Shown: positions 19,131-50,317 of the stretch, in pieces | How the letters are laid out: each line of letters begins with the position of its first letter | How positions within the stretch are numbered: position 1 is the stretch's first letter | IMG/VR virus record: IMGVR_UViG_3300029288_000057 | Coordinates: 32,001 to 96,000 of that record | Origin: a virus | Taxonomy: Duplodnaviria; Caudoviricetes | Direction: 5' to 3' (one strand) | Length of the DNA: 64,000 bases | Made by a program: the position numbers and the translations under genes | The notes under the pieces: model-generated | The model's input: only the letters and a program-made list of their open reading frames with translations | What the model was told of the DNA's origin: nothing | Database searches by the model: none

Positions 19131-19179
19131 AATGGTATTATTTTGATTATATAAAGCGAATTTATTTGAAGGGGGGTTG

Positions 19180-19392
19180 TTATTTGTCTGTGTCAATAGA
19201 CCCGAAGGGACACTCTTCATCTTCTTCAATGCTTTCAATGTGGTCTCCAATTCCATCATTCAAAATTTGGTCAACACATTTCTTTCTTACATTGGTTGCA
19301 ATTGCATCCAATTCTTCTTCTTCTGAAAGATTATCTTCAACGATTACCCTTACCATTAAAGACACGCCTATAAGTTTTGCTATTTTTCCCAT
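19180..19392 (-). CDS. Acidic hypothetical protein
   Basis: Single-gene cassette. Confidence 0.75.
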   Translation of the reverse strand: MGKIAKLIGVSLMVRVIVEDNLSEEEELDAIATNVRKKCVDQILNDGIGDHIESIEEDEECPFGSIDTDK

Positions 19393-19443
19393 GATTTCTA
19401 TTTTTATGTTATAAAGCCATTCTTTTGAAAAAGAGGGAAATCC

Positions 19444-19911
19444 CTATTCTTCCTCTCTCATTTGTTTTCTCAGCAAGGAAACAATTTGCCTAATGGATTT
19501 TACAGGAACCGACACTTTGCCGAAACCGTTCAAGTCTGCTAATGAACCTGTAGGATATGGTTGGTTATTTCTTTCACCAGGTTCAATTTTGAGTTCACCA
19601 TTTTTCAGGTCTCCAGGGACAAAACTAAGCATAAGACACTTTTCTTTAAAATAGGGGAATACTGATACTCTGCAGCACAGACCCATAGGAATATATTTTT
19701 CATTCTCCTCAAATGTTAATTCGGGCATTCGTTTTTTAACTTCTTCTATTAATGGTTTTATCAGGTTTTCTGTCCAGTGGGGATAAGCTTTTTCTCTCTT
19801 TACTTTCAACCTTTCAATTTGTCTTTCTTTGAGTGCAATCTTTGCCTCTATGGCTGTTTGTGCTTTTTTCTTTTCGACAAAAAGATTCTGAATTTCTGTA
19901 AATTTTTCCAT
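19444..19911 (-). CDS. Hypothetical protein
   Basis: Start moved to MEKF. Confidence 0.75.
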   Translation of the reverse strand: MEKFTEIQNLFVEKKKAQTAIEAKIALKERQIERLKVKREKAYPHWTENLIKPLIEEVKKRMPELTFEENEKYIPMGLCCRVSVFPYFKEKCLMLSFVPGDLKNGELKIEPGERNNQPYPTGSLADLNGFGKVSVPVKSIRQIVSLLRKQMREEE

Positions 19912-20025
19912 GACTTTAATTTTGGTATATAAAGCAAATTGTTTTAAAAAGAGGGAAATTTCACAAAATCTTAGGTTCAAATCTAATTTCCGCTTTTTTA
20001 GACTATTTATAGAAAAGATGAAATT

Positions 20026-21054
20026 ATGAATACATGTTTAAATTGCGGACAAGAAACAAATAACAAAAAATTTTGTTCTATTAAATGCCAAATGGAGTAT
20101 CAGAACAAAGAAAGATGTGATAAGAGGTTTGGGTTGTTTAAAAATTTTACAGTAAAATGTAATAAGTGCGAAAAAGAGCTTATAGTTAATGAAAGAGAAA
20201 AACTATTCCCACAAAAGGAAAAATATTATTGTGGGAGGGGTTGCGCTAATAGTAGAGTACATAATGACATTTCTAAAGAAAAAATTAGAAAAGCGCTAAC
20301 TAAAAACAATGTAGTCAAAATAATTTGTAAACAGTGCAGTGGGGAGTTTGAAGTTCCTTATAAAGAAAGAAAACAGCTGTTTTGTTCCAGAAGCTGTGCT
20401 GCTATATTTAAAGGTAACGTTATAAGAAACACAATAAAAAATAAACCAATAATTAAAATAAGAAAAGAAAAAGATATAAATAAAATTACGTTCATATACA
20501 GTTTAGAATATCCATTGGGGAATATACGATATATAGGAAAATCTGACCATCCAAAAGCCAGATTAAAAGACCACATTAAAGAAGCAAAACAAAGAAATAA
20601 AAGTCATAAAGATAAATGGTTAAATAGCTTAAGCGAGCTTCCAATACTGAACATTATTGAGGAAACTACATACGCCGATTGGCAAGCCAGGGAGATGTAT
20701 TGGATTAAATTTTATAAAGGCAAAGGATTTAATCTTGTTAATGGAACTGACGGAGGGGAAGGTAGTAATGGGTTTCTGGGGAAAACTCATACAATTGAAA
20801 ATAGAAAAAAGCTTGCAGAATGTAATAAAAATAGAATTATTTCACAAGAAACCAAAGATAAATTGAGTGGGGAAAACAGTGGAAGGTGTAAATTAAAGGA
20901 TGATGAGGTGAGAGATGTTTTTCATATGTTTTGTGACGAGCATAAAACTCGTAGGGAGATTGCTGATAAATATAATATTAATCCAAATTATATTAATCAA
21001 CTAATTTCAGGGAGAAAACGCAAAAATATATTTAATGAGTTTAACTCATTATAA
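20026..21054 (+). CDS. GIY-YIG homing endonuclease with Cys-rich repeats, NUMOD3-like and HTH motifs
   Basis: FIY..RYIGKS...R..DH..E..WI..N.TDGGEG; GKTHT.E.RKK; repeated CxxC/FCS..C. Confidence 0.85.
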   Translation: MNTCLNCGQETNNKKFCSIKCQMEYQNKERCDKRFGLFKNFTVKCNKCEKELIVNEREKLFPQKEKYYCGRGCANSRVHNDISKEKIRKALTKNNVVKIICKQCSGEFEVPYKERKQLFCSRSCAAIFKGNVIRNTIKNKPIIKIRKEKDINKITFIYSLEYPLGNIRYIGKSDHPKARLKDHIKEAKQRNKSHKDKWLNSLSELPILNIIEETTYADWQAREMYWIKFYKGKGFNLVNGTDGGEGSNGFLGKTHTIENRKKLAECNKNRIISQETKDKLSGENSGRCKLKDDEVRDVFHMFCDEHKTRREIADKYNINPNYINQLISGRKRKNIFNEFNSL

Positions 21055-21066
21055 ATCAGTATATTG

Positions 21067-21140
21067 TCATGCTGGTGGGAATTGAACCCAACATTGCTGA
21101 TGTGAAAGACCAGATTCCTAACCATTTAGAAGACAGCACG
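21067..21140 (-). tRNA. trnE: tRNA-Glu(TTC)
   Basis: Acceptor CGTGCTG/CAGCATG, anticodon arm CTGGT-CTTTCAC-ATCAG, T loop TTCAATT; no encoded CCA. Confidence 0.85.
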
Positions 21141-21143
21141 TTG

Positions 21144-21220
21144 TACCATGTATGGGACTCGAACCCATGACCTTTGCAGTGAAAGTGCAATGACTTACAA
21201 TCCATCTCGTCGAACATGGC
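21144..21220 (-). tRNA. trnE: tRNA-Glu(TTC)
   Basis: Acceptor GCCATGT/ACATGGT, anticodon arm TTGCA-CTTTCAC-TGCAA, T arm ATGGG-TTCGAGT-CCCAT. Confidence 0.9.
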
Positions 21221-21225
21221 ATAAA

Positions 21226-21254
21226 AAAAGCGGGAGACTTTCGTATCCCGCTTC
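21226..21254 (-). terminator. Intrinsic terminator
   Basis: AAGCGGGA/TCCCGCTT hairpin plus U-run on minus strand. Confidence 0.6.
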
Positions 21255-21374
21255 TAAGCTTTTTGTAAATTAACCTTTTACATAGTTTTGTCAGGGACAC
21301 AATTGTTGTGAACTTCCTCGCTTTCCTCTGTGTAAAAATTAATCTTCATTTTATTCGTAACTTGTTAATTTGTA

Positions 21375-21445
21375 GTGCGGGAGCAGGAGTTGAACCTACA
21401 TATGCTGCTTATGAGACAGCCAATCTACCATTAATATATCCCGCA
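21375..21445 (-). tRNA. tRNA with CAT anticodon (Met or Ile2), weak D arm
   Basis: Acceptor TGCGGGA/TCCCGCA, anticodon arm GCTGT-CTCATAA-GCAGC, T arm GTAGG-TTCAACT-CCTGC. Confidence 0.8.
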
Positions 21446-21492
21446 ATATATTGTATCTTTAAATAGTCAAAAAAAATCTTTTCTACGACTTT

Positions 21493-21520
21493 TATACGCA
21501 AATATACGAAAAAAGTTTCA
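21493..21520 (-). promoter_or_regulatory. Class II promoter TGAAAC-N16-CGTATA for the tRNA cluster
   Basis: About 48 nt upstream of tRNA(CAT). Confidence 0.7.
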
Positions 21521-21548
21521 ATAAACGCAAGAAAAAAGCAAAATATTT

Positions 21549-21917
21549 TTAAAAAACCTTCTTAATATTTATCAATTTTCTTAACTCATACTGTGTTCCA
21601 TCAACAATAGTAATTAATCCCAATTGGTCTTTATATTCCACTTTTCCTTTAAGAGGCTTGCTGTTTACATCATTACAACAATCTTGAAACTCTATTGTGT
21701 CGCCTGGTTTAACAGTTGTATTTTTCACAAATTGTTTACGTATCACAACATTGTCGGGGTGATTTTCAATTTCTTCTTTTGTCATAGGCACTACTTTGTA
21801 CATAAAATCTGGTGTTTGCGTTGCCGCAAAGTCTTCACATTCTTGTTTTGTGCCATCAAAACAACCTTGCCCTTCATCTTCGTGATAGTGTAAGTCTAAT
21901 ACTTGATGTGTTTTCAT
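21549..21917 (-). CDS. Hypothetical protein
   Basis: Array ORF. Confidence 0.7.
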   Translation of the reverse strand: MKTHQVLDLHYHEDEGQGCFDGTKQECEDFAATQTPDFMYKVVPMTKEEIENHPDNVVIRKQFVKNTTVKPGDTIEFQDCCNDVNSKPLKGKVEYKDQLGLITIVDGTQYELRKLINIKKVF

Positions 21918-21936
21918 ACTCAAAATTTTTTAAAAT

Positions 21937-22215
21937 TTATTTTAACAGATAAATAACTGTTGTAACAGCTTTATTCGTCACCATCTGCTTGGCTTTTTTT
22001 ACGTTTTTGTTTACTTCCTTTTTTGCTTCTTTCTTTAAGTTCACTTTCTTTGCATCGGAAATAATCATAGAAGCATGTTCTTCGGTTATCTGTCCGTTTT
22101 TCACCAGTGCGTTTGCATTGGCTTTGCTTCTTTTAACGTAATTGTTTTGTTCAATCGTTGCACAACTGGCAAAGGCAAACATTGCAATGACTAATAGAAT
22201 AACTAACTTTTTCAT
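21937..22215 (-). CDS. Putative lipoprotein
   Basis: MKKLVILLVIAMFAFASC lipobox. Confidence 0.7.
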   Translation of the reverse strand: MKKLVILLVIAMFAFASCATIEQNNYVKRSKANANALVKNGQITEEHASMIISDAKKVNLKKEAKKEVNKNVKKAKQMVTNKAVTTVIYLLK

Positions 22216-22276
22216 CTTGTTTATTTTTTTAATTTATTATATAAAGACATCTGCTCAAAAAAGAAGGAAACTGTCT

Positions 22277-22681
22277 TTAATGTCCCCTCAATACACAATA
22301 CAATTCTTCTCCCTTAAAACCTCTTATCATTTCTCTGAGCAACGCAATTGCCATTTTGAATCTTCGGTATGGTTCAAGCTTGTTGTCAGTAACAATCGCT
22401 TCTAAAACTTCTTTTATGGGGACAAGTCGAAGGGGGGCGCCGTAGCAATCTGTTTTAATTTCAAATTCTTCATCACACTTTTTACAATATCCCTCATAGT
22501 AATAAGTGCGGGGGTACTTCTTGGCATTTCTCTTTTTTTGAATTCTTTCAATAAGCTTACCAAAATTGCCAGTATAAACTTTGGATAGTTCTAAGGAAGC
22601 AAGCTTTATAAAATAAGTCTTTACTCTTCTATGAGGCTCGTCAAGTTTCCTCCCAATCAATAATTCGGTTTCGTATCCCAT
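22277..22681 (-). CDS. Hypothetical protein (MGY start)
   Basis: Array ORF. Confidence 0.75.
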   Translation of the reverse strand: MGYETELLIGRKLDEPHRRVKTYFIKLASLELSKVYTGNFGKLIERIQKKRNAKKYPRTYYYEGYCKKCDEEFEIKTDCYGAPLRLVPIKEVLEAIVTDNKLEPYRRFKMAIALLREMIRGFKGEELYCVLRGH

Positions 22682-22690
22682 GGCATTTAG

Positions 22691-22915
22691 TTATTTTGAG
22701 TTAATAATTTCGAGATATGCCTTTGCTTCTGTTTCGTTGTACATTGCATAGCGATTCATTTGTTTTCCTTTATATGGTTTCAAAGTTTCTTTGTCAACAA
22801 CTTTTCCTTCTTCATTTAAAAAATAGTAATAGGTTGCACAAACTGGCATTCCGCTGGGCAAAGATTTTGCATGATAAGGGATATACTGAGTAAATTGTAA
22901 TGTAAACTTTGCCAT
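22691..22915 (-). CDS. Hypothetical protein
   Basis: Array ORF. Confidence 0.7.
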   Translation of the reverse strand: MAKFTLQFTQYIPYHAKSLPSGMPVCATYYYFLNEEGKVVDKETLKPYKGKQMNRYAMYNETEAKAYLEIINSK

Positions 22916-22990
22916 TGTTATAAATAATTAAGAGTTGAATATATAAAGGATGAGTTCAAAAAAGAGGGAGAGTTTTCACTCTCCGTCTTT

Positions 22991-23512
22991 TTAAGTATGC
23001 ACAAGGTTAAAAAACACTTCTGTATATCCTTTTGGTTTGCGAGGTTCAATAGAAATCAGGTGCCTTGCCCATGAACCAACCAGATTTTGGGGGTCTGTGC
23101 TTCTAAAGTCGCCGCCGCCCCGTCCGTTTTCCTCGCAAGTAAGCAGAGGTAGGGGGTGAATTTGCCAACCGCCTTTATTGGGTACTTTGCTTTTATCCAC
23201 AAACTGTTTTGTAGTATGGTTCACAATGTATTTAGCTTTAACAAGCTGTAAGGGGGGGGAGACTTTGAGTTTATCTTTACAGCGTTGGTAAACATTTGTT
23301 TTTAATCCTTTGTCTTCATCTGCATAGTCGCCTGCCCATACAACAATCTGTGGCTTTTGCAAAATCAGATTTTCAAATGCTCCAACAAATTTGTTTCCCA
23401 ACCATGAATGCTCCATGAGTTTTGCTCCACAGGTATAATCCCATGATTCCATAAACAATTCAACTGTTCTTTTGTTTTTTCCAAGAATACTTGGTTTATA
23501 ATATTGTCCCAT
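22991..23512 (-). CDS. Hypothetical phage protein (MGQYY..KLMEHSW..WAGDY..HPLPLL..GSWA)
   Basis: Single-gene cassette. Confidence 0.8.
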   Translation of the reverse strand: MGQYYKPSILGKNKRTVELFMESWDYTCGAKLMEHSWLGNKFVGAFENLILQKPQIVVWAGDYADEDKGLKTNVYQRCKDKLKVSPPLQLVKAKYIVNHTTKQFVDKSKVPNKGGWQIHPLPLLTCEENGRGGGDFRSTDPQNLVGSWARHLISIEPRKPKGYTEVFFNLVHT

Positions 23513-23574
23513 GACTTCAATTTTTTGGTTAATAATTTATTATATAAAGCAAATTTTTTATAAAAGAGGGAGAG

Positions 23575-23898
23575 TTATTTTGCCAAGTTCATATCTAAAT
23601 CAAAATCAGCTTGGTTATTTTGAACCAGTTCAACTTTCAAATCGAATAATCTGTATTTGTCCGCAATGCTGAGAAAATAACCGTCATGTGCGGCAATAGC
23701 CAAATCTGCAAAGTTAAATTCTCCGCCTGAATATTCCCACATTCTTCTGCCATTTTCATTATAAGTTATATATGTGCTAATGGCGTGTTTAAGAGATTCC
23801 AAAAAAGCATCTGCATGAAGCTTTTCTTCATTTGAAATTGTCATAATAACAGTAATGGTTTTGTCGGCATTTTGCCCTCTTGCAATAAATCTGTTCAT
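23575..23898 (-). CDS. Hypothetical protein
   Basis: Single-gene cassette. Confidence 0.75.
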   Translation of the reverse strand: MNRFIARGQNADKTITVIMTISNEEKLHADAFLESLKHAISTYITYNENGRRMWEYSGGEFNFADLAIAAHDGYFLSIADKYRLFDLKVELVQNNQADFDLDMNLAK

Positions 23899-23955
23899 GG
23901 TTTTTGTTTTTGATTTATGAATATATAAAGCAAATGTTTTTAAAAAGAGGGAGAG

Positions 23956-24702
23956 TTATTTTTTGTTAATAATAAGAATCTTTCCGCCCACTTCTGTGCC
24001 GCTTTCTTTAAATTCTCCAGCGGGAATTGTTTCTGCATATGCAGTTACGTTAACCAACCAATCACGAAATTCTTTTTCTTTCCTGTTGTTTGATGTTTCC
24101 CAGTGTTTGGAAGTAATAGAAACTAACATGCCTCCTTTTTTTAACAGGCTATACATTTTCATTACATGGTCAATATCTTGGTTTTTTGAAAATGGGGGAT
24201 TAGCAATTATTCGGTCATAGTAACCTTCATATTGCTTTGGAATTTTCAAAAAGTCCTCACAAATAAAATGAACATTTGGATGTTTTGCTAATATATTTCC
24301 ATTAATGGCCATTATTTCGCAGCAGTCAACCCAAATAGTTGAAATCTTTCTTACAATAGCATCAACTATTGCGCCTTGCCCTGCTGATGGTTCTAATATT
24401 TTGTGTGAATTTTTTATATCTGCAATACTAACTAATTTATCAGCAAGTTTTTCGGGTGTTCCAAAAAATTGAAATTCTTTTTTTAAATTTCTATTTCCTC
24501 CCTTTGCAATTTGAGTGAGTAATTCTGTGGGGTCTTCCTGGAAAATAAATCCAGCTATTTTCCCACCTTTCCACTTTCCGCCGATTAATTTCAAAGATTC
24601 CGCAACATCCAAATATAGATTTCTATCAAGTTTACCATTTGGCAACTTGACAATTAATCCATCAACCGTACAAGCCTTTAAAATATCTTCTTTTGTTTTC
24701 AT
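23956..24702 (-). CDS. SAM-dependent amino (probably N6-adenine DNA) methyltransferase
   Basis: QFF.TP, LEPSAGQG motif I, DF, IANPPF motif IV, F..SGT. Confidence 0.85.
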   Translation of the reverse strand: MKTKEDILKACTVDGLIVKLPNGKLDRNLYLDVAESLKLIGGKWKGGKIAGFIFQEDPTELLTQIAKGGNRNLKKEFQFFGTPEKLADKLVSIADIKNSHKILEPSAGQGAIVDAIVRKISTIWVDCCEIMAINGNILAKHPNVHFICEDFLKIPKQYEGYYDRIIANPPFSKNQDIDHVMKMYSLLKKGGMLVSITSKHWETSNNRKEKEFRDWLVNVTAYAETIPAGEFKESGTEVGGKILIINKK

Positions 24703-24777
24703 CTTGGTAAATTATAAATATATAAAGCGAATTTATTTAAAAAGAGGGAGAGTTTCTCCCCCTGGTTCATATTTTCT

Positions 24778-25542
24778 TTATGCAGCTACGTTCATTCTTC
24801 TCCCGTCCCCAACTTTTCCCCTTTTATAACCCATGATTCCGTCCTTTCTCATTTTCATAATTGCATCCATTGCACGGCTATTTTTCGCCTGTGTTCCATG
24901 TAAAAGTAGAGCAAACTTTTTACATTTTCTGTCGTAGCAATGGCTGTCGTCGTGGTCGATTTCGATATTCTTTGCTTTTGCTTCTTCTTCGCTAAAAACC
25001 ACTTCTACATTCTTAAGGTTATGTTTTTCAATTAAGCTATCATTTTTTCCGCCCTTTGAAGCAATAAGGTGAAAGTTTTCAGGAATTTCATTTAACTTTG
25101 CAACCCAGAATTTCAGGCTCTTTGTATAAGCATAAAATGTTTTTTCAGGCATTGCTTTGGCAAAGATTAACCAAGCATTAAAATACTTTTGATTAAAAAA
25201 GTCTCCGCTTGAATGTATTCTTACTTTGGCGGCATTCTGCGCCTTTAAATTTGCATTAAAAGAAGCAGCAATCAATTCCGCAATTTCTTTTGATGTATCG
25301 CATTTTCTGATAAGATTATAATTTCTCCACCTTTTTACACGTGCTGCGGGGCTAATTAATTCACTTGTGGCTGCGAAGCAACGGAATTTTGCTTTGGGGT
25401 TAAAAATCATTTTCCCTGTTTTGGGGTTAACCTTATCGCCGCAATCTTTTGAGTAAGGACACGTAAATCCTGCTGGAAGGTCCACTATAACAACGTCATT
25501 CTTTAATTTTGCATTGCCGATACCTAACTGTAAATATTTCAT
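24778..25542 (-). CDS. GP88-like phage protein
   Basis: GNAKL, LPAG.TCP...C..C.A, RIHSSGDF, YAYTKS. Confidence 0.7.
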   Translation of the reverse strand: MKYLQLGIGNAKLKNDVVIVDLPAGFTCPYSKDCGDKVNPKTGKMIFNPKAKFRCFAATSELISPAARVKRWRNYNLIRKCDTSKEIAELIAASFNANLKAQNAAKVRIHSSGDFFNQKYFNAWLIFAKAMPEKTFYAYTKSLKFWVAKLNEIPENFHLIASKGGKNDSLIEKHNLKNVEVVFSEEEAKAKNIEIDHDDSHCYDRKCKKFALLLHGTQAKNSRAMDAIMKMRKDGIMGYKRGKVGDGRRMNVAA

Positions 25543-25654
25543 GATAATATGTTTTTGGTTATAAAAATATAAAGAAACAAAAATAGAAAAGAGGGAAGAA
25601 TTGTCACCAAATTGTTAACAATTGCTAGGTCATTGCTTGAAAAAAAGTGTATAC

Positions 25655-25688
25655 AAAAAACCCCCGCATCCATGCTTGGAGCGGGGGT
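25655..25688 (-). terminator. Intrinsic terminator
   Basis: ACCCCCGC/GCGGGGGT hairpin plus U-run. Confidence 0.7.
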
Positions 25689-25734
25689 CTCACCTTAAAA
25701 CAGCGGGGTCGTGGGTGCGAAGCACGGGCGCCCG

Positions 25735-25968
25735 CTAATAGTTAGTATACGTCTTTCTCGTTAACTTTATTGTGTCTCCGACGTTATAGAAGCGGCAACT
25801 GATTACAGCTTCTTTGCGTCCCGTTCTAACACCCGCTCTGTTTATTGGGGTCATAGTAACCACACAATTGTGTTCGACGCCATTGGGGGTCTTTGAGGTT
25901 ACCACAAATTGAGGGGCTGAGCAGGAACCGAGAAGTGCTATAATTAGTATTAAAAATAACTTTTTCAT
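25735..25968 (-). CDS. Putative lipoprotein
   Basis: MKKLFLILIIALLGSC lipobox; start moved. Confidence 0.7.
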   Translation of the reverse strand: MKKLFLILIIALLGSCSAPQFVVTSKTPNGVEHNCVVTMTPINRAGVRTGRKEAVISCRFYNVGDTIKLTRKTYTNY

Positions 25969-25972
25969 TTTC

Positions 25973-26344
25973 TTAGTTTTCTTCTGATGTGTAATTGTCT
26001 CTGTCCTGAGTGTCTGTATAATTGTCTCTGTCCTGCCCGCTTGTCCCGTCTTCTTCAAACGCTCCTTTTTCCAAAATTTCCAAAATTTCAATCTGTAAGT
26101 GAATTGGCAGGTCGTCTAATAATATTTCACCCAAGTCATAATTAACGTCTGTAATGACTGTTAATTCTCCCGTATACTCATTATCTCTGATACCAACGAG
26201 GTTCTCATTGAGCCCATCTTCATGTTCGACATGAGTAATTGCATCAAACCTCAAATGTTTATTACCAATGATGTTTCTGACAAGCATTTCAATGTCAGCT
26301 TGCATCCTTGTAAGTTCTTGTTTTAAATTTTTGCTAACTAACAT
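25973..26344 (-). CDS. Acidic hypothetical protein with QDRDNYT repeat
   Basis: Array ORF. Confidence 0.75.
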   Translation of the reverse strand: MLVSKNLKQELTRMQADIEMLVRNIIGNKHLRFDAITHVEHEDGLNENLVGIRDNEYTGELTVITDVNYDLGEILLDDLPIHLQIEILEILEKGAFEEDGTSGQDRDNYTDTQDRDNYTSEEN

Positions 26345-26421
26345 TGCCTTAATTTTTTTGGTTATACGAATTTATAAAGTAAATGTTTCGGAAAAGAGGG
26401 AGAGGTTCAATCTCACCCTAT

Positions 26422-26883: not shown

Positions 26884-26946
26884 GATTTTTATTTTTAAGA
26901 TTATGATTATATAAAGTAAATTGTTTGGAAAAGAGAGAAAGGTGTG

Positions 26947-29585: not shown

Positions 29586-29589
29586 CTGA

Positions 29590-41360: not shown

Positions 41361-41364
41361 TTTA

Positions 41365-42557: not shown

Positions 42558-42562
42558 TGGTT

Positions 42563-42760: not shown

Positions 42761-42823
42761 AATTTTATATTTAATTGGTTATACGAATATATTAAGCAAA
42801 AGTTTAAGAAAAGAGGGGAGAGT

Positions 42824-43510
42824 TTACATCCCTCCCAACACAAAGAAAAATGAATTTATATCAGCAATGTGTTTATAGTGTGTGAAAGTACCAGTTTCAT
42901 AGTAGGTAAATTTATCATAATCAAAATGATAATTAATTTCCATTATCTTGTTTCCTTTACAGAAAAACTCAACTCTCTTTACTACCATCTTTTCAGAAAA
43001 TTTATCATTACTGGTAAATTCCTTGCTCATTTTCTTATAAAGAACCGCATCCCCTTCAAATCCGCTTTTGTGATTAGATACGTTAAAAGATATTTTTTGT
43101 GCTTTCGTTTTGCATGGAATTGATTTAAAAGAATTTTCTCCTGTTTCAGTTTTAAAACATTCAACATGAAAATCATCTGCCAAATAATCTTCTGTTTTAA
43201 TTCCATCAACTATATAATCTTCCTGCCCTTTGGTGTGAGCAATCCTATTCTCAATGGACTTTACAAATCCCTGAATATTGTTGTTAAAAAAGGCTTTGGC
43301 AATCGAATCATCAAATCTTGACATACCCATCAAAATAGTGCCTACTTCTTCATATCGTGGGTAGTTGCTCTGTGCAATAGCATCAGCTAATGTAAAATTG
43401 AAATGATATAAATCATCTCTTTTTGTTCCTTCATCTTCAGCAGTACACGCTTCGAGAAATTCTTCGAGAAATTTATTTGTGAGGTCTAAAAGCCTTTTGC
43501 TTACTTCCAT
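42824..43510 (-). CDS. Hypothetical protein
   Basis: Single-gene cassette. Confidence 0.8.
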   Translation of the reverse strand: MEVSKRLLDLTNKFLEEFLEACTAEDEGTKRDDLYHFNFTLADAIAQSNYPRYEEVGTILMGMSRFDDSIAKAFFNNNIQGFVKSIENRIAHTKGQEDYIVDGIKTEDYLADDFHVECFKTETGENSFKSIPCKTKAQKISFNVSNHKSGFEGDAVLYKKMSKEFTSNDKFSEKMVVKRVEFFCKGNKIMEINYHFDYDKFTYYETGTFTHYKHIADINSFFFVLGGM

Positions 43511-43566
43511 GATATTTAATTTATTGATTGAATATATAAAGCAAATTTGTTTGGAAAGAGGGCGGC

Positions 43567-43935
43567 CTATTTTCTTATAATGAGTGTAATTGTTGAGGCG
43601 TGTTTTACATATATTCGTTTTGTTAAAAACGACATCCCTGTGCTATTCCCAAACAAATATGCGACATTGACATAAAACAAACTGTTTGCATGTTCAAATT
43701 TAACATATCCAAATCCCTGTTCGCCAAACCCCATATTGGGTTTGAAAATATGAACATAATCGTCCACCTTTACATCTGTTTTCTTAATTTCAGGAAACTT
43801 TTTTATTCCTCTGCTTTCGGTCAGATATTGCAAATACAAATCAACATCAAGTTTATTTGCTTCCCTGTATGAAATACTCTTGAAATCTTTATCGAGGCAA
43901 GCAAGCGGTTTTCCGTCCATTAGTTTTGTTTTCAT
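43567..43935 (-). CDS. Hypothetical protein
   Basis: Single-gene cassette. Confidence 0.75.
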   Translation of the reverse strand: MKTKLMDGKPLACLDKDFKSISYREANKLDVDLYLQYLTESRGIKKFPEIKKTDVKVDDYVHIFKPNMGFGEQGFGYVKFEHANSLFYVNVAYLFGNSTGMSFLTKRIYVKHASTITLIIRK

Positions 43936-44111
43936 TGTTTTGTTTGTTGGTTATAAATACATAAAGCAAATAAACGTGGAAAGAGGGAAAACTTACCTCC
44001 CCCCCCTTTTTCGGTTGTTCCGAATTATCTGTCTTGCGTTTTGGCTTTGGGGAGTTTGCCCTGTTCGGTGCATCCTTTGCGTTCTCCCGTGCCTTTTCGT
44101 GCTTGTCCATT

Positions 44112-44276
44112 TTATCCCCTTGCCAGTTTACGTCTCTGTTCTCTCATACTTGCCTTTATAATTGTGTTCTTTGTGCTGACAACTTCAGCAGAGCGAACCG
44201 ATACAAAGGTAAGGGAGAATAAGGAAATGATAATTACAAATAAAATGTTTGCGGATAATTCAAATGCTTTTTTCAT
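44112..44276 (-). CDS. Small membrane protein (54 aa, absent from ORF track)
   Basis: MKKAFELSANILFVIIISLFSLTFV after class I element. Confidence 0.55.
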   Translation of the reverse strand: MKKAFELSANILFVIIISLFSLTFVSVRSAEVVSTKNTIIKASMREQRRKLARG

Positions 44277-44341
44277 AGTGTCTAAAATTTTTAATTGGTT
44301 ATGAATATGTAAAGAAATCCGTTCGGGGAAGAGGGAGACTT

Positions 44342-45301
44342 TTACTGATAAGCCACATCATCATCAAAAATTTCAAGCTCCAATTCTTCTCTTGCCGTCC
44401 TTGCTTGTGCTTGCGTCAATCTTTTGCCGCTGTTCGGGTGCAAATGCTTCATGTCAGCGAAAATATGAATCCATCCCTTTGCTTCAATTGTAGGCACATC
44501 TGATTCTAAAATCGTATGCACATATTCAATATGATTAGTATATTTACAATAATGCATTGTTCCATCGGGGGAGAGCCAACCCATCTTTAAACTTTTATCT
44601 GTGGAATCTTTTAACAAGTCCTGATAGTGTGTTGTCTTTGCTCTCTGTTCTATTGTATTAACCACATCCCAACTTTTCGCCTTAACAGTTTCGAGAATCT
44701 TATCTTTTGACCCAAGTATACACCAACTAAAGCCATTTGATGCTAAAAGTATTTGTGAGCCGTCTGCGTGCTTTCCTCCAAGCTCTTTCCAAGAAATTTG
44801 AAAATCCGTTTCGCTTGCACCAATGAATTGTTTTACCAATACAAGCGTTTTCATATCAATAGCTTTTTTTTCATTTACAATTATTCTGTAGCAAAATTCA
44901 CCATCTGAACCAACCCATTTGCCTATACGTTTCATCTCAAAATTCTTTGGTATGCTGCCCAAATCCCTTTCAATGTTTTTAGGCTCGGAAACATATAAAA
45001 CTGTTTCAAACCTCTCAAGGTTATTTTCAATCGTTTCTTCGGGAAAACCACTGTGACAAGGACGAATGAAAACGGGTAAACAACTATCGGGGAATTTAAA
45101 TTTGGTGCAATCCAAAGGTAATACCTTTGATAAGGTTTTACCTGCATCAGCTATGCCCCCTGGCAATATATCCAAACTGATTACTTTATCCATCAAAGAG
45201 CCAAGCAACCCCTCACCTGCCCCACAATCTACAACCACACGCCCTTTGGCTTCCTTTTTAATTATCGCTAAAAGTCCTTTGTCAATTTGACAGAATATCA
45301 T
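44342..45301 (-). CDS. Protein with N-terminal SAM-methyltransferase-like domain and C-terminal GWLSPDG..H domain
   Basis: VVVDCGAGEG motif I, ISLD. Confidence 0.65.
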   Translation of the reverse strand: MIFCQIDKGLLAIIKKEAKGRVVVDCGAGEGLLGSLMDKVISLDILPGGIADAGKTLSKVLPLDCTKFKFPDSCLPVFIRPCHSGFPEETIENNLERFETVLYVSEPKNIERDLGSIPKNFEMKRIGKWVGSDGEFCYRIIVNEKKAIDMKTLVLVKQFIGASETDFQISWKELGGKHADGSQILLASNGFSWCILGSKDKILETVKAKSWDVVNTIEQRAKTTHYQDLLKDSTDKSLKMGWLSPDGTMHYCKYTNHIEYVHTILESDVPTIEAKGWIHIFADMKHLHPNSGKRLTQAQARTAREELELEIFDDDVAYQ

Positions 45302-45578
45302 AGCAGTTTGGTTTTATTGGTTTATAAACATATAAAGGAATATGTTCAGGAAAGAGGGGATAAACCACATAGAATTGTTTCTTGTGGGGTGCGTAATTAT
45401 TTTCTGCGTTTAAATATTGCCTGAAATATATATATAAGTCCTTGCATTATGTAATAAACTGAAACGAGAAATATTACTCCATATCCTAATAATCTACCAG
45501 AACTCTGTTGGTTTAAAAATTCAAATAGTGTTTCCATTGTAATTTGTTTTTATTGATTGAATATATAAAGCAAAAGTT

Positions 45579-45881
45579 TTAGGAAAGAAGGGATTTGTCT
45601 TTTCTTACACACCACGTCTGAGTGCAATTTGAAGTATGAAGATATTCAGGACGCCCTTTGCAGGAGATATAATTAGGAAATGTTTCTACATCTATTCTTT
45701 TAGCATTCAGTAAATTGTTTCCCACATTTTCGGGAGTTACCGAATATTCATACGTATTACCCCCCATCTTATCCCACGTAACAATACAATCATAAAAAGC
45801 TCTTTCGCTCTCAAATAATTGTTTTCTTATTAATTTGCCTTTTGCACTCGTTAATGTATATTCAAATTCAAATGCGTACAT
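45579..45881 (-). CDS. Hypothetical protein
   Basis: Start moved to MYAFE. Confidence 0.7.
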   Translation of the reverse strand: MYAFEFEYTLTSAKGKLIRKQLFESERAFYDCIVTWDKMGGNTYEYSVTPENVGNNLLNAKRIDVETFPNYISCKGRPEYLHTSNCTQTWCVRKDKSLLS

Positions 45882-45900
45882 GGTTGCGTTTTTTATTGGT

Positions 45901-46143
45901 TTATAAAGATACTTTAATTTTTGTTGACAGTTCATCCAGTTCCTTTTTTGTTTCGTCGTCTGATACACTTCTTACTCTCTCAATCATTCGACCAATTTGG
46001 AACGCTTCTATTGGCGTTAAGTCTTTTGGTGTTTCTACAGTTTTCTTTGCTAATTTTCTCCATGTGCTTTCCTGTAGACCGTTTAGTGGTCTTGATGAAA
46101 AATTCTCATTCGCAAATTCTAATAATAATTTTGGGAAGTTCAT
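45901..46143 (-). CDS. Hypothetical protein
   Basis: Array ORF. Confidence 0.7.
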   Translation of the reverse strand: MNFPKLLLEFANENFSSRPLNGLQESTWRKLAKKTVETPKDLTPIEAFQIGRMIERVRSVSDDETKKELDELSTKIKVSL

Positions 46144-46204
46144 AGTGCAAAGTTTTATTGATTGAATATATAAAGCGAATTTATTTGGAAAGAGGGGAGA
46201 GTTT

Positions 46205-46408
46205 TTAATCCAAAAACATTAATTCCTTTTGAATGCTTTCAGCTTGCCTGCTGTATTTTTTGTACATTTCTAAACACGCATGTCTGCCGTATGTATTGTT
46301 TTTGTCTTCACCAAAAAAAAGACGTGCGCAGAACCTTCTGCTGCTTATTACACTGTTTAATTGGTATTTCAGGTATATTCTTTTGAGAAATTTCTTGAGC
46401 CTTTTCAT
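46205..46408 (-). CDS. Hypothetical protein
   Basis: Single-gene cassette. Confidence 0.7.
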   Translation of the reverse strand: MKRLKKFLKRIYLKYQLNSVISSRRFCARLFFGEDKNNTYGRHACLEMYKKYSRQAESIQKELMFLD

Positions 46409-46466
46409 GGTATTTGGTTTTTATTGGTCGCTAAATATATAAAGCAAACAAAAATGAAAAGAGGGA

Positions 46467-46655
46467 TTAATTAAAAGAATGATAAATGTACTTTGCCCCA
46501 CGCCATGTTTTCGGAAGGGGTTGTATTCGTTCTGCGTTTACTTCCAGCCCAAACTTTTGATTCTTAAAATGTACCCTTTTGGAATTAATCATGTCAATAA
46601 AACAAAGTTTGGTTCCAGAATGAGTAATAACTTTTACATATTCACCGAGTTGCAT
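46467..46655 (-). CDS. Hypothetical protein
   Basis: Array ORF. Confidence 0.7.
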   Translation of the reverse strand: MQLGEYVKVITHSGTKLCFIDMINSKRVHFKNQKFGLEVNAERIQPLPKTWRGAKYIYHSFN

Positions 46656-46660
46656 AGCTC

Positions 46661-46906
46661 TTAGTTTTTAGGGAATATTGTATTAAAATCAAAAGTCTCA
46701 AGTATGGGTGCGTTTCCTGGCATTTTACCAGTTCTTCTGTTTATCCTTTGAGCATAAATAGTGTCGCCTTCAAAACCAAAAACCTTGTACAATATTTCAT
46801 ATTCTCTGCCAAAGCATTTTTTAGGAGAAGGAATAAGAAAAAAACGACCTGTTTCAATCCCTTTGTGGTTTGATTCAAATTTTATGTCTGAGAGTTTCCT
46901 GCACAT
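46661..46906 (-). CDS. Hypothetical protein
   Basis: Array ORF. Confidence 0.7.
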   Translation of the reverse strand: MCRKLSDIKFESNHKGIETGRFFLIPSPKKCFGREYEILYKVFGFEGDTIYAQRINRRTGKMPGNAPILETFDFNTIFPKN

Positions 46907-46963
46907 GGTAATTGTTTTTTTGGTTAAATATATAAAGCAAAAGGAAATGGAAAGAAGGAGTGT

Positions 46964-47302
46964 TTACTCCCTGTATATAGCCTCATTGAGAAAGATTTCA
47001 AAGTCTTTAATAGCTATATCAACGTTTTCACAGCTATGAAAATTGTTCTTATGGTTTGGGTGAGATAACCCACAGAATTTTTTATGCTTCATGAATACAC
47101 TATATAAATTTTCTTGATGGTCAGGATTGTATAGGGTAACTTTTAACGGTTCAATTGCACCAGCGAATGAACTTTCATCTAATGGAATTTCATATTCACA
47201 GGCTTGTGAATTAAGACTGTGAACCTTAGTCCCAGCATGATTGAGTATGATTTTCTGTATTTCTGAAACGAATTTTATTCTGTCTTTTTTTGTATTTTTC
47301 AT
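46964..47302 (-). CDS. Hypothetical protein
   Basis: Start moved to MKNTK. Confidence 0.75.
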   Translation of the reverse strand: MKNTKKDRIKFVSEIQKIILNHAGTKVHSLNSQACEYEIPLDESSFAGAIEPLKVTLYNPDHQENLYSVFMKHKKFCGLSHPNHKNNFHSCENVDIAIKDFEIFLNEAIYRE

Positions 47303-47363
47303 AGTTTGTGGTTTTGGCTTGTTAAATATATAAAGCAAAATATTAAAAGAAGAAGGAATCGGT

Positions 47364-47603
47364 TTAATTCCACCCCCTCAGCTTTTGAACGTATTGGATA
47401 AACATAAACCTGCAATCATTTTCAAATTCTTCGTAGGTCATTGGGGCAAACATCTCACTATTGAACTTACCTGCGATAATGAATTGCATCATATTTCTTT
47501 TAACATCGTAACGGTAAGTCGTCTCTGAACCAACTACGTGATAATAGTAAACATCCTCTGTACGAGACTTAATAAGCATTGGTTGTTTTATAGACTTTTT
47601 CAT
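47364..47603 (-). CDS. Hypothetical protein
   Basis: Start moved to MKKSI. Confidence 0.7.
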   Translation of the reverse strand: MKKSIKQPMLIKSRTEDVYYYHVVGSETTYRYDVKRNMMQFIIAGKFNSEMFAPMTYEEFENDCRFMFIQYVQKLRGWN

Positions 47604-47832
47604 ACCGATTGTTTGTAAGTTTATAAAGCCATTTTTAAATAAAGAGGGAAGACGGGGTACCAAACCCGTCTTCCAAAACCAACTAAACCTAAACATGAAA
47701 AAACCAACTTCGCTAACTAATATTTTTATAACATGTGTATTTTCTTTTTATCATGCCAGAAACTTTTATCTGGCTCTTCACCTCTGGTTCTGGAGTTATA
47801 AAGAAACCTCTCCAGAAAAGAGGGAGAATCAC

Positions 47833-48210
47833 TCAACCCGTCGTTTCAATAACTTCACAGAAGTTTGCAGTATATAAGGCGGAATTAAGCAAAAGACTTT
47901 CATAAAACGACAGTGCTTTTTCTCTATCCTCAAAGTTTTGAAAGTAGTCTGTTAAATCTTTATCCCGCCCCTCAATAACATAAGCCACACAATATTTAAT
48001 ATGAAATGTATTCTTTTTTTTAAAAAACTTATCTATAAAAGTGTTAATTCCATAAGCTGCAAAAAGAATAAGCAATATAGAAACACAAAAAGAAATAAAC
48101 CCCGACGTTACGTCCCACACTGCACCCCACCCACCACAAATAGTAATGACAATTGCAACGGCAAGTATAATTAAAATAAGTCTTTTGGATATTAAAATTT
48201 CTTTTTTCAT
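47833..48210 (-). CDS. Membrane protein
   Basis: Two TM helices. Confidence 0.75.
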   Translation of the reverse strand: MKKEILISKRLILIILAVAIVITICGGWGAVWDVTSGFISFCVSILLILFAAYGINTFIDKFFKKKNTFHIKYCVAYVIEGRDKDLTDYFQNFEDREKALSFYESLLLNSALYTANFCEVIETTG

Positions 48211-48261
48211 AGTGGTTAGTTTTTATTGGTTTATAAATGTATAAAAGAAAGGAAGGAAAGA

Positions 48262-48468
48262 TTATTTTGACTCGTTTAAATCAATTATCAAATGGGTTTT
48301 AGTTTCACTAATATTAAACGTTCTCCAATCTGAATTTTGCTTTTTCGTATTGCAAACGAATATTGTTGTTTTCCTGACATCATGCTCAAATATTGCAAAG
48401 CATTTTCCGTCTTGTATCGCATAATCTGAATAAAATGTTCCTTGAGGTTTTTTAATTCTGCGTTTCAT
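48262..48468 (-). CDS. Hypothetical protein
   Basis: Array ORF. Confidence 0.7.
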   Translation of the reverse strand: MKRRIKKPQGTFYSDYAIQDGKCFAIFEHDVRKTTIFVCNTKKQNSDWRTFNISETKTHLIIDLNESK

Positions 48469-48530
48469 TTTGGTTTGTTTTGGTTTAACAAATATATAAA
48501 GCGAATTTATTTTGAAAGAAGGGAAGTTTT

Positions 48531-48809
48531 TTAAACATTAATAGTTGTTGTTATTGTTGTAATAGTTTGAATCTGGAATTGAGAATTTTCGTAAGTTTTT
48601 TCCCCTTCATAAACACTTTCTCTTAATTCCTGTATATGTTCAAGTGCTTGTTCATATCCATAAATATCAAGAGTTGTCTTTCCTCCTTCGGGGTTAAACT
48701 TTTTCCATCTTTCATCAAATTTTGAATATCCTTCTGGTGAAAAATAACCATTCATATCTTTAGTTTTTACAACTAAATATGTATTTGTTTCTGTTGTTGT
48801 GTCTTTCAT
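48531..48809 (-). CDS. Hypothetical protein
   Basis: Single-gene cassette. Confidence 0.75.
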   Translation of the reverse strand: MKDTTTETNTYLVVKTKDMNGYFSPEGYSKFDERWKKFNPEGGKTTLDIYGYEQALEHIQELRESVYEGEKTYENSQFQIQTITTITTTINV

Positions 48810-48877
48810 GGTTTCTATATTTGAATATATAAAGTAAATTGTTTCAAAAAGAAGGGATTTATTATTGACTTTTGGTT

Positions 48878-49183
48878 TTATAATTTACTTGCAATAGATT
48901 TTAGCAAATTATGGAACTCTTCAAAGTCTTCTAATGACTTCCGTATTGTAAACACATTACAGTAATCTTCTGCCTGCCTATAGGTTGTAATTTGTTCATC
49001 AACATTAAAATCATTCACATAAGAAACAAATTCCTCTTTGGTAAATGGGCGTAAAAGAATAATCATATCCACCCCGCCAGAAGTCCATATTTCTAATTCG
49101 GCAACTTGTGTTTTTTCTTCTTTGAACAAAGATACGTTAAACCCGTTGTCTTCAAAAAATTTGGTTAATTGTTTTATTTTCAT
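48878..49183 (-). CDS. Hypothetical protein downstream of tRNA-like element
   Basis: Start moved to MKIKQ. Confidence 0.75.
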   Translation of the reverse strand: MKIKQLTKFFEDNGFNVSLFKEEKTQVAELEIWTSGGVDMIILLRPFTKEEFVSYVNDFNVDEQITTYRQAEDYCNVFTIRKSLEDFEEFHNLLKSIASKL

Positions 49184-49205
49184 GTTTGACAGTTTTTTGT
49201 CTTTT

Positions 49206-49291
49206 GCCCCACGAACAGGACTCGAACCTGTCACAGTATTATTTCCTGCGTTGTTCACAACATTACATTGTGTGCCTGACAAGACGTGGAG
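49206..49291 (-). ncRNA. Degenerate tRNA-like element (possibly His-GTG derived)
   Basis: Acceptor CTCCACG/CGTGGGG, T arm ACAGG-TTCGAGT-CCTGT, D-like TTGT/ACAA; loop TTGTGAA on a mismatched stem; directly after class I element 49298-49326. Confidence 0.55.
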
Positions 49292-49316
49292 TGTAAGTAT
49301 ATAAAGCAAATTTATC

Positions 49317-49544
49317 TTAAAGAAGGAGACTTTTTTCACCAGCCAGGATTTCTTTCATTTCTTTAGAGCTTACAAAGTCAGCTCCTCTTGAAAATGGTTC
49401 GTCAAATGCTTTGATTTCTTTTTTTAATTTCCTTGCTCCACATTTGCATTCAAAGATTATTTCTCTTGTGTGAAAAGAAATATACATACATGCTATTGGT
49501 TTGCTGAAATTATGTATATGCAGCTTTTTAAATAATTTTTTCAT
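49317..49544 (-). CDS. Hypothetical protein
   Basis: Array ORF. Confidence 0.7.
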   Translation of the reverse strand: MKKLFKKLHIHNFSKPIACMYISFHTREIIFECKCGARKLKKEIKAFDEPFSRGADFVSSKEMKEILAGEKSLLL

Positions 49545-49576
49545 TTGTTATAGGTTTATTGGTTAAATATATAAAA

Positions 49577-49984
49577 TTACCGAAAACTTGTCCTGTATGG
49601 GTAGCTTGGCTGCGTTTTAGAGATTAATATTCCATACCTCCAAACTTCTTTTGTGTTTTGTTCATACCACTTGTTTATTATATAATGTCTTGCTTCAATA
49701 TGAGGGGGCAATTTATCAATATAAGAATTAACATTCAATTTATTAAATTCCTGAAACGTTATTTTGCTCCTTTCATCAACAAATTTTTCAGCAGCCTTCA
49801 ATGGACTTGGATAATTGCATTGTTTCAAAAAATCATAAACAGCTTGCAAAGATTTACCTTCAATATAAGCGTGCCTGTAAAAATCATCAATCCATGAATT
49901 AAAAATAAATTTAGGGCAGTTCAAATAGTTTCTTGAATAATATACATAGTCAATAAACTTTTCAGTGGGGTTTAAAAGTTCCAT
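49577..49984 (-). CDS. Hypothetical protein
   Basis: Array ORF. Confidence 0.75.
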   Translation of the reverse strand: MELLNPTEKFIDYVYYSRNYLNCPKFIFNSWIDDFYRHAYIEGKSLQAVYDFLKQCNYPSPLKAAEKFVDERSKITFQEFNKLNVNSYIDKLPPHIEARHYIINKWYEQNTKEVWRYGILISKTQPSYPYRTSFR

Positions 49985-50317
49985 TTGTTTTAATTTTTAT
50001 TGGTTAAGTATATAAAGCAAAATTCCCTCCAAGAAGGAAACATTTGCTATTTTTTTACTTTGCCCTTACTCCTCTTTTACGTGCAAAAGTGGTATTCGGA
50101 TTGCCTTTTTCCAGTCTGATTGCTTCAGCAGTTTTGCGAGCAAATTTACGTGCTGTCCTGAGAATAGATTTGTCGTTCATGTTGTTTTATTTTTATGGGT
50201 TATGATTATATAAAGCAAAATTCCCTCAAAAGAGGGAGGTTTATAAAATAATTATAAATAAGTCTTTGTTTTTTTAAATTTCTTTTTTATATTTATAATA
50301 AAGTTCTTTAAAATATT

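Follow-up and report, generated by a model that had tools for sequence, protein, structure and literature searches.

The DNA analyzed here (the window, 64,000 nucleotides) comprises bases 32001 to 96000 of the 290,886-bp IMG/VR virus record IMGVR_UViG_3300029288_000057, which is about 91% complete; we refer to the genome under study as G0 (or G000) and to related lineages as G1 (or G001), G2, G3, and G4. Between approximately 8 and 55 kb of the window, the genes run on the minus strand, and a motif noted on the plus strand is thus to be read as its reverse complement. In this region, nearly every small gene is preceded by one copy of a short element with two conserved boxes, CCCTCTT and CTTTATA. 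A scan of the whole genome with a two-block position weight matrix (PWM) found 63 minus-strand copies between window positions 9416 and 51835 and one plus-strand copy at 51899, and no comparable element in the other 248 kb of G0. Copies are named by the window position (pos) of the C of CTTTATA, the element spanning roughly pos-32 to pos+29, and all coordinates are collected in Table 1.

Read in the coding direction, the order is upstream stop codon (often the TAA within TAAACTCT), box 1, spacer, box 2, leader, and ATG. Box 1, (A)ACTCTCCCTCTT (also written CTCCCTCTT), is -35-like and followed by a T-run; box 2, CTTTATATATT, is -10-like and TATA-rich; and the A/T spacer between them, usually 14 and sometimes 13 nucleotides (nt) long, starts with a T-run and ends in TTTG. 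The gap from CCCTCTT to CTTTATA measures 14 nt in 45 to 48 copies and 13 nt in 11 to 14. The leader beyond box 2, (T)ATAACCAAAAA or (Y)(R)TAAACCAAAAA, is A-rich and has no Shine-Dalgarno sequence, the A-rich AACCAAAAA occupying the place such a sequence would take. The ATG follows about 25 nt further on; in 50 of the 63 copies, its distance from the C of CTTTATA is 20 to 45 nt. The intergenic gaps that bear a copy have a median length of 64 nt. In 25 of the 63 copies, a hairpin can form between a GGGAG-type arm further upstream and the CCCTC of box 1, with the T-run behind it, and about 10 of these hairpins are strong (-10 to -20 kcal/mol); an independent scan likewise found 39 terminator-like sites, many of them on box 1, where 11.8 were expected in 19 kb. 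The element is, in short, a composite of a terminator tail, with an optional hairpin, and a putative promoter. Four copies (51152, 49306, 47803, and 39787) have no open reading frame (ORF) of at least 30 codons within 90 nt downstream; these may be gene-less promoter units (for small RNAs, perhaps) or decayed cassettes.

The first-pass annotation of the window had reported that spacers and leaders recur in front of unrelated genes, and the repeats it described are indeed present. The 32-nt exact match joins positions 33662 to 33693 with 46165 to 46196 and has relatives with two mismatches at 24717, 43531, and 48491, the like of which did not turn up in 100 shuffles. The spacer GCGAATTTATTT recurs exactly at 19156, 24727, 33672, 46175, and 48501, against 0.02 expected occurrences, and TTGATTGAATATATAAAGC recurs exactly at 43524, 45553, and 46158; since the genes lie on the minus strand, the element reads CCCTCTT...CTTTATA and the sequence previously called a leader is the transcribed leader. 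A second spacer family, AATCC(A/G)TTCGGGGAAGAGGG, is seen as a pair at about 40697 and 44316, and a third, GCAAAATTCCCTC, as a pair at about 50016 and 50215. Copy 46175 is a mosaic, combining the spacer of 33672 with the leader of 43541 and 45570, the latter of which has a different spacer. That the genes behind shared spacers are unrelated was borne out as well, as an all-against-all blastp comparison of the 108 ORFs of the block returned no match with an E value below 1e-3.

Of the 32 matched positions, about 19 hardly vary across the family, so that the surprise is limited to some 13 identical variable positions. Two null models were built from all 63 aligned copies, namely, column permutation (the PWM null) and a position-specific first-order Markov model, which keeps the position-specific nearest-neighbor dependence and therefore allows for A-tract versus T-tract spacers. 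Pairs of copies with at least 12 of 13 identical spacer positions numbered 8, against 0.56 under column permutation and 1.35 under the Markov model (3/1000), and pairs with an exact run of at least 20 nt numbered 22, against 1.6 and 2.3 (0/1000 for the Markov model), respectively. A run of at least 32 nt was reached in 2 of 2000 column permutations, and shared leader runs of at least 15 nt were found 7 times, with 0.12 expected under the Markov model (0/1000). None of 1000 simulations under either null yielded a family as large as the five copies that have the spacer 11-mer AAATAAATTCG in common. Because both nulls are rejected, the sharing, which thus exceeds PWM and Markov expectation alike, is real and more than chance would produce. 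For every pair of G0 copies, the best ungapped shared segment falls within -33 to +29 of the element, the longest being 43 nt with 2 mismatches.

Relatives were sought by a pattern scan of IMG/VR, by protein and alignment scans with a conserved gene of the block, by a metagenome scan, and by scans with an RpoD-like sigma factor of the phage. The four lineages found share core genes in syntenic order with G0 and with each other at 65 to 80% nucleotide identity; no informative relative above about 80% was found in these searches, the sole closer pair being a 99.9% duplicate of G2. In G1 to G4, the element has the same architecture and occupies the same place in the genome, each lineage having its own consensus (Table 1), and the 14-nt gap is kept throughout, such that box 1-N14-CTTnAT is common to all five lineages. 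Spacer information amounts to 0.46 bit per position in G0, compared with 1.04 in G1, 0.90 in G3, and 0.92 in G4, and fully identical spacer pairs account for 1 of 1953 pairs in G0, 34 of 1540 in G1, 7 of 351 in G3, and 11 of 253 in G4. As the spacers of the relatives are more uniform and include more identical pairs, shared spacers are a property of the whole clade, which G0 displays least. Every lineage keeps the T-run at the start of the spacer and (A)TT(T/C)G at its end, with the TTCG variant of that end recurring in G0, G1, and G3. The premise of the first-pass annotation that the spacer is unconstrained was therefore mistaken, given the T-run start, the TTTG end, and the 0.9 to 1.0 bit per position in the relatives.

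Several further observations bear on how the copies came to resemble each other. Spacer similarity and leader similarity are uncorrelated between copies (r = -0.02 in G0 and -0.07 in G1), and neighboring copies are more alike than distant ones (z of about 3 in G0 and about 6 in G1). In seven orthologous G0-G1 pairs, the spacers agree at 7.1 of 14 positions, compared with 7.6 of 14 in random G0-G1 pairs, and spacer identity within G1 reaches 10.3 of 14; the gene-proximal part of the leader, on the other hand, follows orthology (14.1 versus 11.7 of 25 positions). The five-copy haplotype AAATAAATTCG is about 4 positions off the genome consensus. In G1 and G3, different genes are preceded by copies with 100% identity over 47 and 54 nt, and a 115-nt repeat in G3 (97% identity) runs about 80 nt into coding sequence at the start of the gene.

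Gene content has turned over extensively. Only some 15 to 20 of the roughly 90 ORFs of the block have a G1 homologue, the flanking core being syntenic, and some of the ORFs shared with G1 have shifted in relative position (window genes 24778-25542 and 22691-22915). At one junction, copy 50981 of G0 (gene 50655-50945) matches G1 copy 320045 over 62 nt at 87% identity, but the orthologue of the gene behind copy 50981 follows the next G1 copy, 320344, and G1 has an extra 78-codon cassette between 320045 and 320344. This is the footprint that excision or insertion between two elements would be expected to leave, and we regard it, given the divergence of the two genomes, as suggestive only. Whether a spacer travels with its upstream gene gave a mixed outcome, in 5 pairs only.

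A Gp23-type major capsid protein (206 bits) and a T4-type portal protein (226 bits) are encoded in G0, an uncultured jumbo phage that is for that reason recognized as T4-like. A search of G0 found no RNA polymerase beta-subunit domain. In Bacteroidota, the sigma-A consensus is TTTG at -33 and TAnnTTTG at -7. The host of the phage is probably a member of the Bacteroidota, because Shine-Dalgarno core 4-mers precede fewer genes than chance would place there (4.4%, with 7.9% as the random expectation), because TTTG-N17-21-TAnnTTTG stands before 12 genes elsewhere in G0 (2.8 expected), and because the closest GenBank homologues of one of the two sigma factors described below, of the extracytoplasmic function (ECF) type, belong mostly to crAss-like phages (at most 32% identity). 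The same search with the ECF sigma found no cultured relative among GenBank phages.

The two phage sigma factors are the ECF-type protein, encoded within the array itself, and an RpoD/RpoS-like protein that is 86% identical between G0 and G1, regions 2.4 and 4.2 being nearly identical. The gene directly upstream of the latter (L065:3271-3759) carries the host-type TTTG-N17-21-TAnnTTTG motif. We consider the RpoD-like sigma the most likely candidate reader of the array promoters. The array-encoded ECF sigma presumably serves another class, the SigW-like TG(A/T)AAC(T)TTTT..N..CGTATAA (with its spacing, TGAAAC..N16..CGTATAA, or in short AAC-N16-CGTATAA), which is found 12 to 50 nt before about 25 genes outside the array and, as a class, lies mostly there. 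Within the array, an overlapping ECF-type promoter is present in 4 of 63 copies (26379, 33074, 37282, and 42796), formed by AAC in the spacer, 16 nt, and CGTATAA in the leader: of the 5 copies with a CGTATAA leader, 4 have AAC at a distance of exactly 16 nt on the upstream side, a position at which only 10 of all 63 copies have it. Binding of an accessory factor, named in the first-pass annotation as an origin of the likeness that would refute its own inference, thus accounts for one subfamily, that of the four overlapping ECF-type promoter copies. Elsewhere in the genome, between 90 and 290 kb, TATTTATA occurs upstream of 54 genes (about 5 expected) at a distance of 10 to 20 nt from the ATG, most of these genes having structural or core functions; this class is late-promoter-like, and its motif is the reverse complement of T4's TATAAATA.

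Neither these two classes nor known host-type promoters describe the array element. TTGACA-N17-TATAAT of the sigma-70 type is not enriched in the array (61 occurrences, 62.9 in shuffles); the CCTCTT-17-TATATA geometry resembles that of the sigma-70 family, the sequence does not. The Bacteroidota sigma-A motif occurs in the array only incidentally, in one copy, the array consensus having CCCTCTT where TTTG would be expected and offering TATATTYR at best at the position of TAnnTTTG. Two other dissections, with TTGCTT as a -35 box and a -10 box 17 nt downstream or with box 3 (TATAACC) as the -10 box, showed no consistent partner on inspection and were set aside. A literature search for the motif strings returned only unrelated primer sequences.

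On balance, we favor, with moderate confidence, the following explanation: the 64 elements are composite cassettes with a nonneutral spacer, whose copies evolve in concert by cassette turnover and recombination at the core, in the manner of the promoter early stem-loops (PeSLs) discussed below. The cassettes would be the promoters of one temporal class in a hyperplastic early/middle region, read by host core RNA polymerase with a phage sigma, the RpoD-like one being likeliest. Expression might then run as a cascade in which host sigma-A expresses the RpoD-like sigma, this sigma reads the 64 array promoters, and one of these promoters drives the ECF sigma and, through it, the AAC-N16-CGTATAA class. 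The sharing would have two causes. First, the spacer would be part of the recognized element and, in a few copies, would double as the -35 box of an overlapping ECF-type promoter. Second, the copies would form a population evolving in concert, with cassettes being gained, lost, and moved; new cassettes would inherit an existing copy, and recombination in the invariant core would reassort an upstream half (trailer, box 1, and spacer) and a downstream half (leader and gene). We propose concerted evolution because constraint alone leaves the lineage consensus, the mismatch between orthologs, the mosaics, the neighbor effect, and the identical copies unexplained. Copying or recombination among copies, as put forward in the first-pass annotation, is accordingly supported by sharing above the nulls, mosaics, independently assorting halves, the effect of neighborhood, and lineage-specific consensus sequences; what is not supported is that the event was recent and the spacer neutral.

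A number of points weigh against this explanation. In G0, the copying signal is weak, there being a single fully identical spacer pair and, for all copies, no identity outside the element, and the positional effect amounts to only 1 to 2 nt of 62. Just 7 pairs, highly diverged, underlie the comparison of orthologs, and since the relatives are only 65 to 80% identical, no crossover can be placed inside the element. Selection could also have produced the lineage-specific consensus sequences, if each lineage has factors of its own. Since no more than about 25 of the 63 copies form a hairpin, and about 10 a strong one, the element has its terminator half as an option only. It departs from the Bacteroidota sigma-A consensus and from TTGACA-N17-TATAAT alike, its pairing with either phage sigma is indirect, and the predicted promoter activity, start site, and timing are deduced from sequence alone.

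The alternative that fares best, if still an unlikely one in our estimation, is pure functional constraint, under which the haplotypes are discrete subclasses (operators of accessory factors, overlapping promoters, or variants in strength or timing) and no copying has taken place. The CGTATAA-leader copies are a case in point, 4 of 5 forming a SigW-like promoter of the class that precedes about 25 other genes, and the spacer ends kept in all lineages, together with the recurrence of TTCG in three of them, are what such constraint would leave. However, the spacer consensus differs by lineage (tttcAAATAATTTG in G1, ttttttTTTATTTG in G3, and tTTTatttTAATTG in G4) while G0 and G1 have nearly the same candidate sigma, and selection alone would not shift some 60 independent copies to a new consensus. 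Moreover, the identical 47- to 54-nt copies in the relatives include nonconserved leader positions, and spacer and leader states assort independently save in the ECF subclass.

We consider it improbable that the element is instead an RNA-level signal, that is, a processing, termination, or translation initiation signal on long polycistronic RNAs. Box 1 with its T-run is terminator-like in about 40% of copies, and the A-rich leader would suit Shine-Dalgarno-independent initiation in a genome in which, as noted above, Shine-Dalgarno 4-mers precede 4.4% of genes; most copies, though, have no stable fold, box 2 is TATA-rich, and the fixed 14-nt gap (about two helical turns, center to center) is kept in five lineages while the boxes change. 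In addition, one copy points the opposite way, back to back with its neighbor at the upstream end of the array, like divergent promoters.

More improbable still is recent segmental duplication, with promoter and gene duplicated together and the shared spacers being the remains of tandem duplicates. Copy 50017 and its neighbor 50215 do have 88% identity across 50 nt (their spacer can also pair with box 1, as CCCTC-TTTT-GAGGG), and the 97% repeat of G3 does reach about 80 nt into coding sequence. Nevertheless, every shared segment in G0 ends within -33 to +29 of the element, and the 108 ORFs of the block include no paralogous proteins, that comparison having come back empty; gene duplication was rejected on this ground, and with shared segments of at most 43 nt, inside the element, and genes that are not paralogues, the recent duplication in G0 that the first-pass annotation had suggested is not upheld. 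Finally, chance likeness among AT-rich promoter copies can hardly be credited, for despite the near-invariance of about 19 of the 32 matched positions and the strong A/T bias of the spacer, the simulations refute it, rejecting both nulls, never (0/1000) yielding the five-copy 11-mer, and giving about 2 runs of at least 20 nt where there are 22.

The concerted evolution of promoter-bearing cassettes favored here has a precedent in the PeSLs and their promoter middle counterparts (PmSLs), known from the T4-type phages RB49/phi1, T4/PST, and KVP40/nt-1 (Arbiol et al. 2010, PMC2839356; Comeau et al. 2014, PMC4122927). PeSLs are composite cassettes of a stem-loop and an early promoter, located in hyperplastic regions and having a lineage-specific consensus; they flank indels and replacements between close relatives and recombine to mini-circles, with crossovers between the -10 box and the ATG (PMC2839356, PMC4122927). 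The likeness is considerable: a T4-like genome, reiterated composite elements of about 50 to 70 nt between small ORFan genes of a hyperplastic region, a lineage-specific consensus, highly variable gene content between relatives, and identity confined to the element. Even the nt-1 stem, A3-4G3-loop-C3T3-4, resembles GGGAG-loop-CTCCCTCTTTT here. There are differences, however. The promoter here is CCCTCTT-N14-CTTTATATATT, which is not sigma-70-like and is probably read by a phage sigma; the leader has no Shine-Dalgarno sequence; the hairpin, present in about 40% of copies, overlaps the -35-like box rather than lying upstream; and the array is far more regular, with 64 copies in one 42-kb run. 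Recombination between copies, moreover, has been demonstrated for PeSLs and is read here from sequence patterns only. The element works like a PeSL but lacks the sigma-70-like promoter and the Shine-Dalgarno sequence, and its stem-loop is not a regular feature of the copies; we therefore regard it as a variant rather than a member of that group.

T4 middle promoters pair a MotA box, (a/t)(a/t)(a/t)TGCTT(t/c)A, at -30 with a sigma-70 -10 element. The core most conserved across the five lineages, (T/A)TTGCTT(T/A/G)A, reads like that "TGCTT Mot-box" of T4 middle promoters (PMC4122927). Here, by contrast, TTTGCTTTA is followed directly by TATATT, with no -10 element at 11 to 13 bp, and searches of G0 and G1 for the MotA C-terminal domain and AsiA (PF09158 and PF09010) gave no match over the cutoff. 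Sigma appropriation by MotA and AsiA was thus ruled out by the missing homologues and by the missing -10 element at the required distance, and the resemblance to a Mot box is probably coincidental. The gp23-type "group 2" jumbo phages have no phage RNA polymerase, encode sigma factors of the RpoD-like and other kinds, and redirect the core enzyme of the host (Iyer et al. 2021, PMC7824862), which agrees with G0, where sigma factors and no polymerase beta-subunit domain were found; for that group, the proteins are only listed, and no cognate promoter family or cassette array is described (PMC7824862). Integron attC arrays resemble the present one in being one-way arrays of unrelated single-gene cassettes joined by a repeated site. 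They differ in that the repeat here is bipartite and promoter-like, not an imperfect inverted repeat that folds as single-stranded attC does, and in that each cassette has its own promoter; no search for an integrase was made.

A more far-reaching speculation, which we advance tentatively and think rather less likely than its being wrong, is that the 45-nt element serves both as promoter and as the dedicated joint of an integrase-free, integron-like gene capture system in a clade of T4-like jumbo phages probably infecting Bacteroidota. Recombination at the core TTTGCTTTATA would insert, excise (as mini-circles), and reorder single-gene cassettes and homogenize the roughly 60 promoters per genome, and promoter and RpoD-like sigma would coevolve as a private code isolated from that of the host.

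Concerted evolution of the cassettes would extend the PeSL idea that a regulatory cassette can also serve as a recombination joint and so preserve the modularity of accessory genes, a principle so far shown only for phages of Proteobacteria with sigma-70-type promoters, to an uncultured clade of T4-like jumbo phages with a private, nonhost promoter and phage-encoded sigma factors. With dozens of copies in each of five lineages, the clade offers a clean natural data set in which promoter constraint and concerted evolution can be told apart, and the defined motif can be used to test which phage sigma reads the element. In annotation, the motif would serve to recognize about 64 genes as one temporal class and to place their start codons.

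Table 1. Element copies, sigma factor genes, promoter examples, and related lineages. Coordinates refer to the window unless another record is named; individual copies are listed by their full span.
Feature	Coordinates	Strand	Remarks
Array (hyperplastic region), 42.5 kb	9380..51945	-	
C of CTTTATA, copies 1-21	9416, 13093, 13567, 15846, 16554, 18174, 19156, 19416, 19934, 22246, 22948, 23549, 23930, 24727, 25574, 26379, 26916, 27955, 28269, 28538, 29065	-	
C of CTTTATA, copies 22-42	29927, 30215, 30831, 31158, 31525, 32263, 33074, 33360, 33672, 34056, 34696, 35630, 36736, 37282, 38018, 38238, 39583, 39787, 40236, 40695, 41082	-	
C of CTTTATA, copies 43-63	42126, 42796, 43541, 43966, 44314, 45337, 45570, 46175, 46444, 46937, 47335, 47628, 47803, 48501, 48834, 49306, 50017, 50215, 50981, 51152, 51835	-	
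Sole plus-strand copy	51878..51940	+	C of CTTTATA at 51899; back to back with 51835; upstream end of array
Copy 19156	19124..19185	-	AAATAAATTCG family; degenerate box 1 CCCCCTT, gap 12
Copy 24727	24695..24763	-	AAATAAATTCG spacer family; box 1 is 3' arm of strong terminator-like hairpin GGGGGAGAAACTCTCCCTC, then T-run
Copy 26379	26350..26408	-	One of the four overlapping ECF-type promoter copies
Copy 33672	33640..33701	-	Spacer haplotype TCCAAATAAATTCG, leader TATATTTGTTA; one arm of 32-nt match
Copy 40695	40663..40724	-	Spacer CCCCGAATGGATTC; paired with 44314 (CCCCGAACGGATTT)
Copy 43541	43509..43570	-	Best G0 pair with 46175 (43 nt, 2 mismatches); shared leader TTCAATCAATAAA
Copy 44314	44282..44343	-	Partner of 40695; box 2 variant CTTTACA
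Copy 45570	45538..45599	-	Leader as 43541/46175; spacer CCTAAAACTTTTG
Copy 46175	46143..46204	-	Mosaic; leader TATATTCAATCAATAAA; other arm of 32-nt match
Copy 48501	48469..48530	-	AAATAAATTCG family; spacer and leader in common with 33672 (34 nt, 1 mismatch)
Copies 50017 and 50215	49985..50244	-	198 nt apart, flanking a 41-codon ORF; common spacer GGAGGGAATTTTG
ECF-type sigma gene, 223 aa	15139..15810	-	In array, headed by copy 15846; Pfam Sigma70_r2, r4_2, ECF; best NCBIfam matches SigW-like
RpoD/RpoS-like sigma gene, 280 aa	genome 289764-290606 = L065:3764-4606	+	Regions 1.2, 2, 3, and 4; full length
SigW-like class, examples	genome 2287, 15991, 18448, 22758, 32773	+	
SigW-like class, examples	genome 98431, 100706, 104370, 106992	-	
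G0			Consensus CCCTCTT..CTTTATA
G1, 57 copies	372-kb complete record		Consensus CCCACTT-tttcAAATAATTTG-CTTTATAtActCAtAACCAAAAA (box 2 CTTTATA)
G2	102-kb fragment and 99.9% identical metagenome contig		Consensus CCCTCTT..CTTTATA
G3, 27 copies	contigs L072, L073		Consensus CCCTCTT-ttttttTTTATTTG-CTTAAT...ATAACCAATAAAAC
G4, 23 copies	contig L074		Consensus CCCCCTT-tTTTatttTAATTG-CTTGATATAAGTA..AAACCTAAAACC (box 2 CTTGATATAAGT)
G1 repeats of about 110 nt	G001 317523-317633, 327588-327699, 334650-334760, 345793-345879, 349663-349750		

Among the genes of the array, few have recognizable domains, these being, on the minus strand, a DnaB/KaiC-like ATPase (12139-13047), a ParB-like protein (16602-17405), and a zinc-ribbon protein (17623-18141); for most of the remaining genes, neither Pfam nor PHROG gave a match. 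The run of minus-strand genes is broken at 20026-21054 by a plus-strand gene for a 342-aa homing endonuclease with HNH and GIY-YIG-like parts. In G1, the match to the T4-type portal protein, 704 aa long in G000, is split in three within one 1147-aa frame (G001:C1:141024-143480, minus strand), which suggests that the G1 portal gene carries an intein or other insertion. Additionally, an intergenic repeat of about 110 nt (76 to 90% identical), longer than the element, occurs at least 5 times in the array of G1 (Table 1), and G3 contains, immediately past the conserved gene for a 185-aa protein, a perfect 92-nt direct repeat (L072:10592-10770), the two copies of which are offset by 87 nt and so have 5 nt in common.

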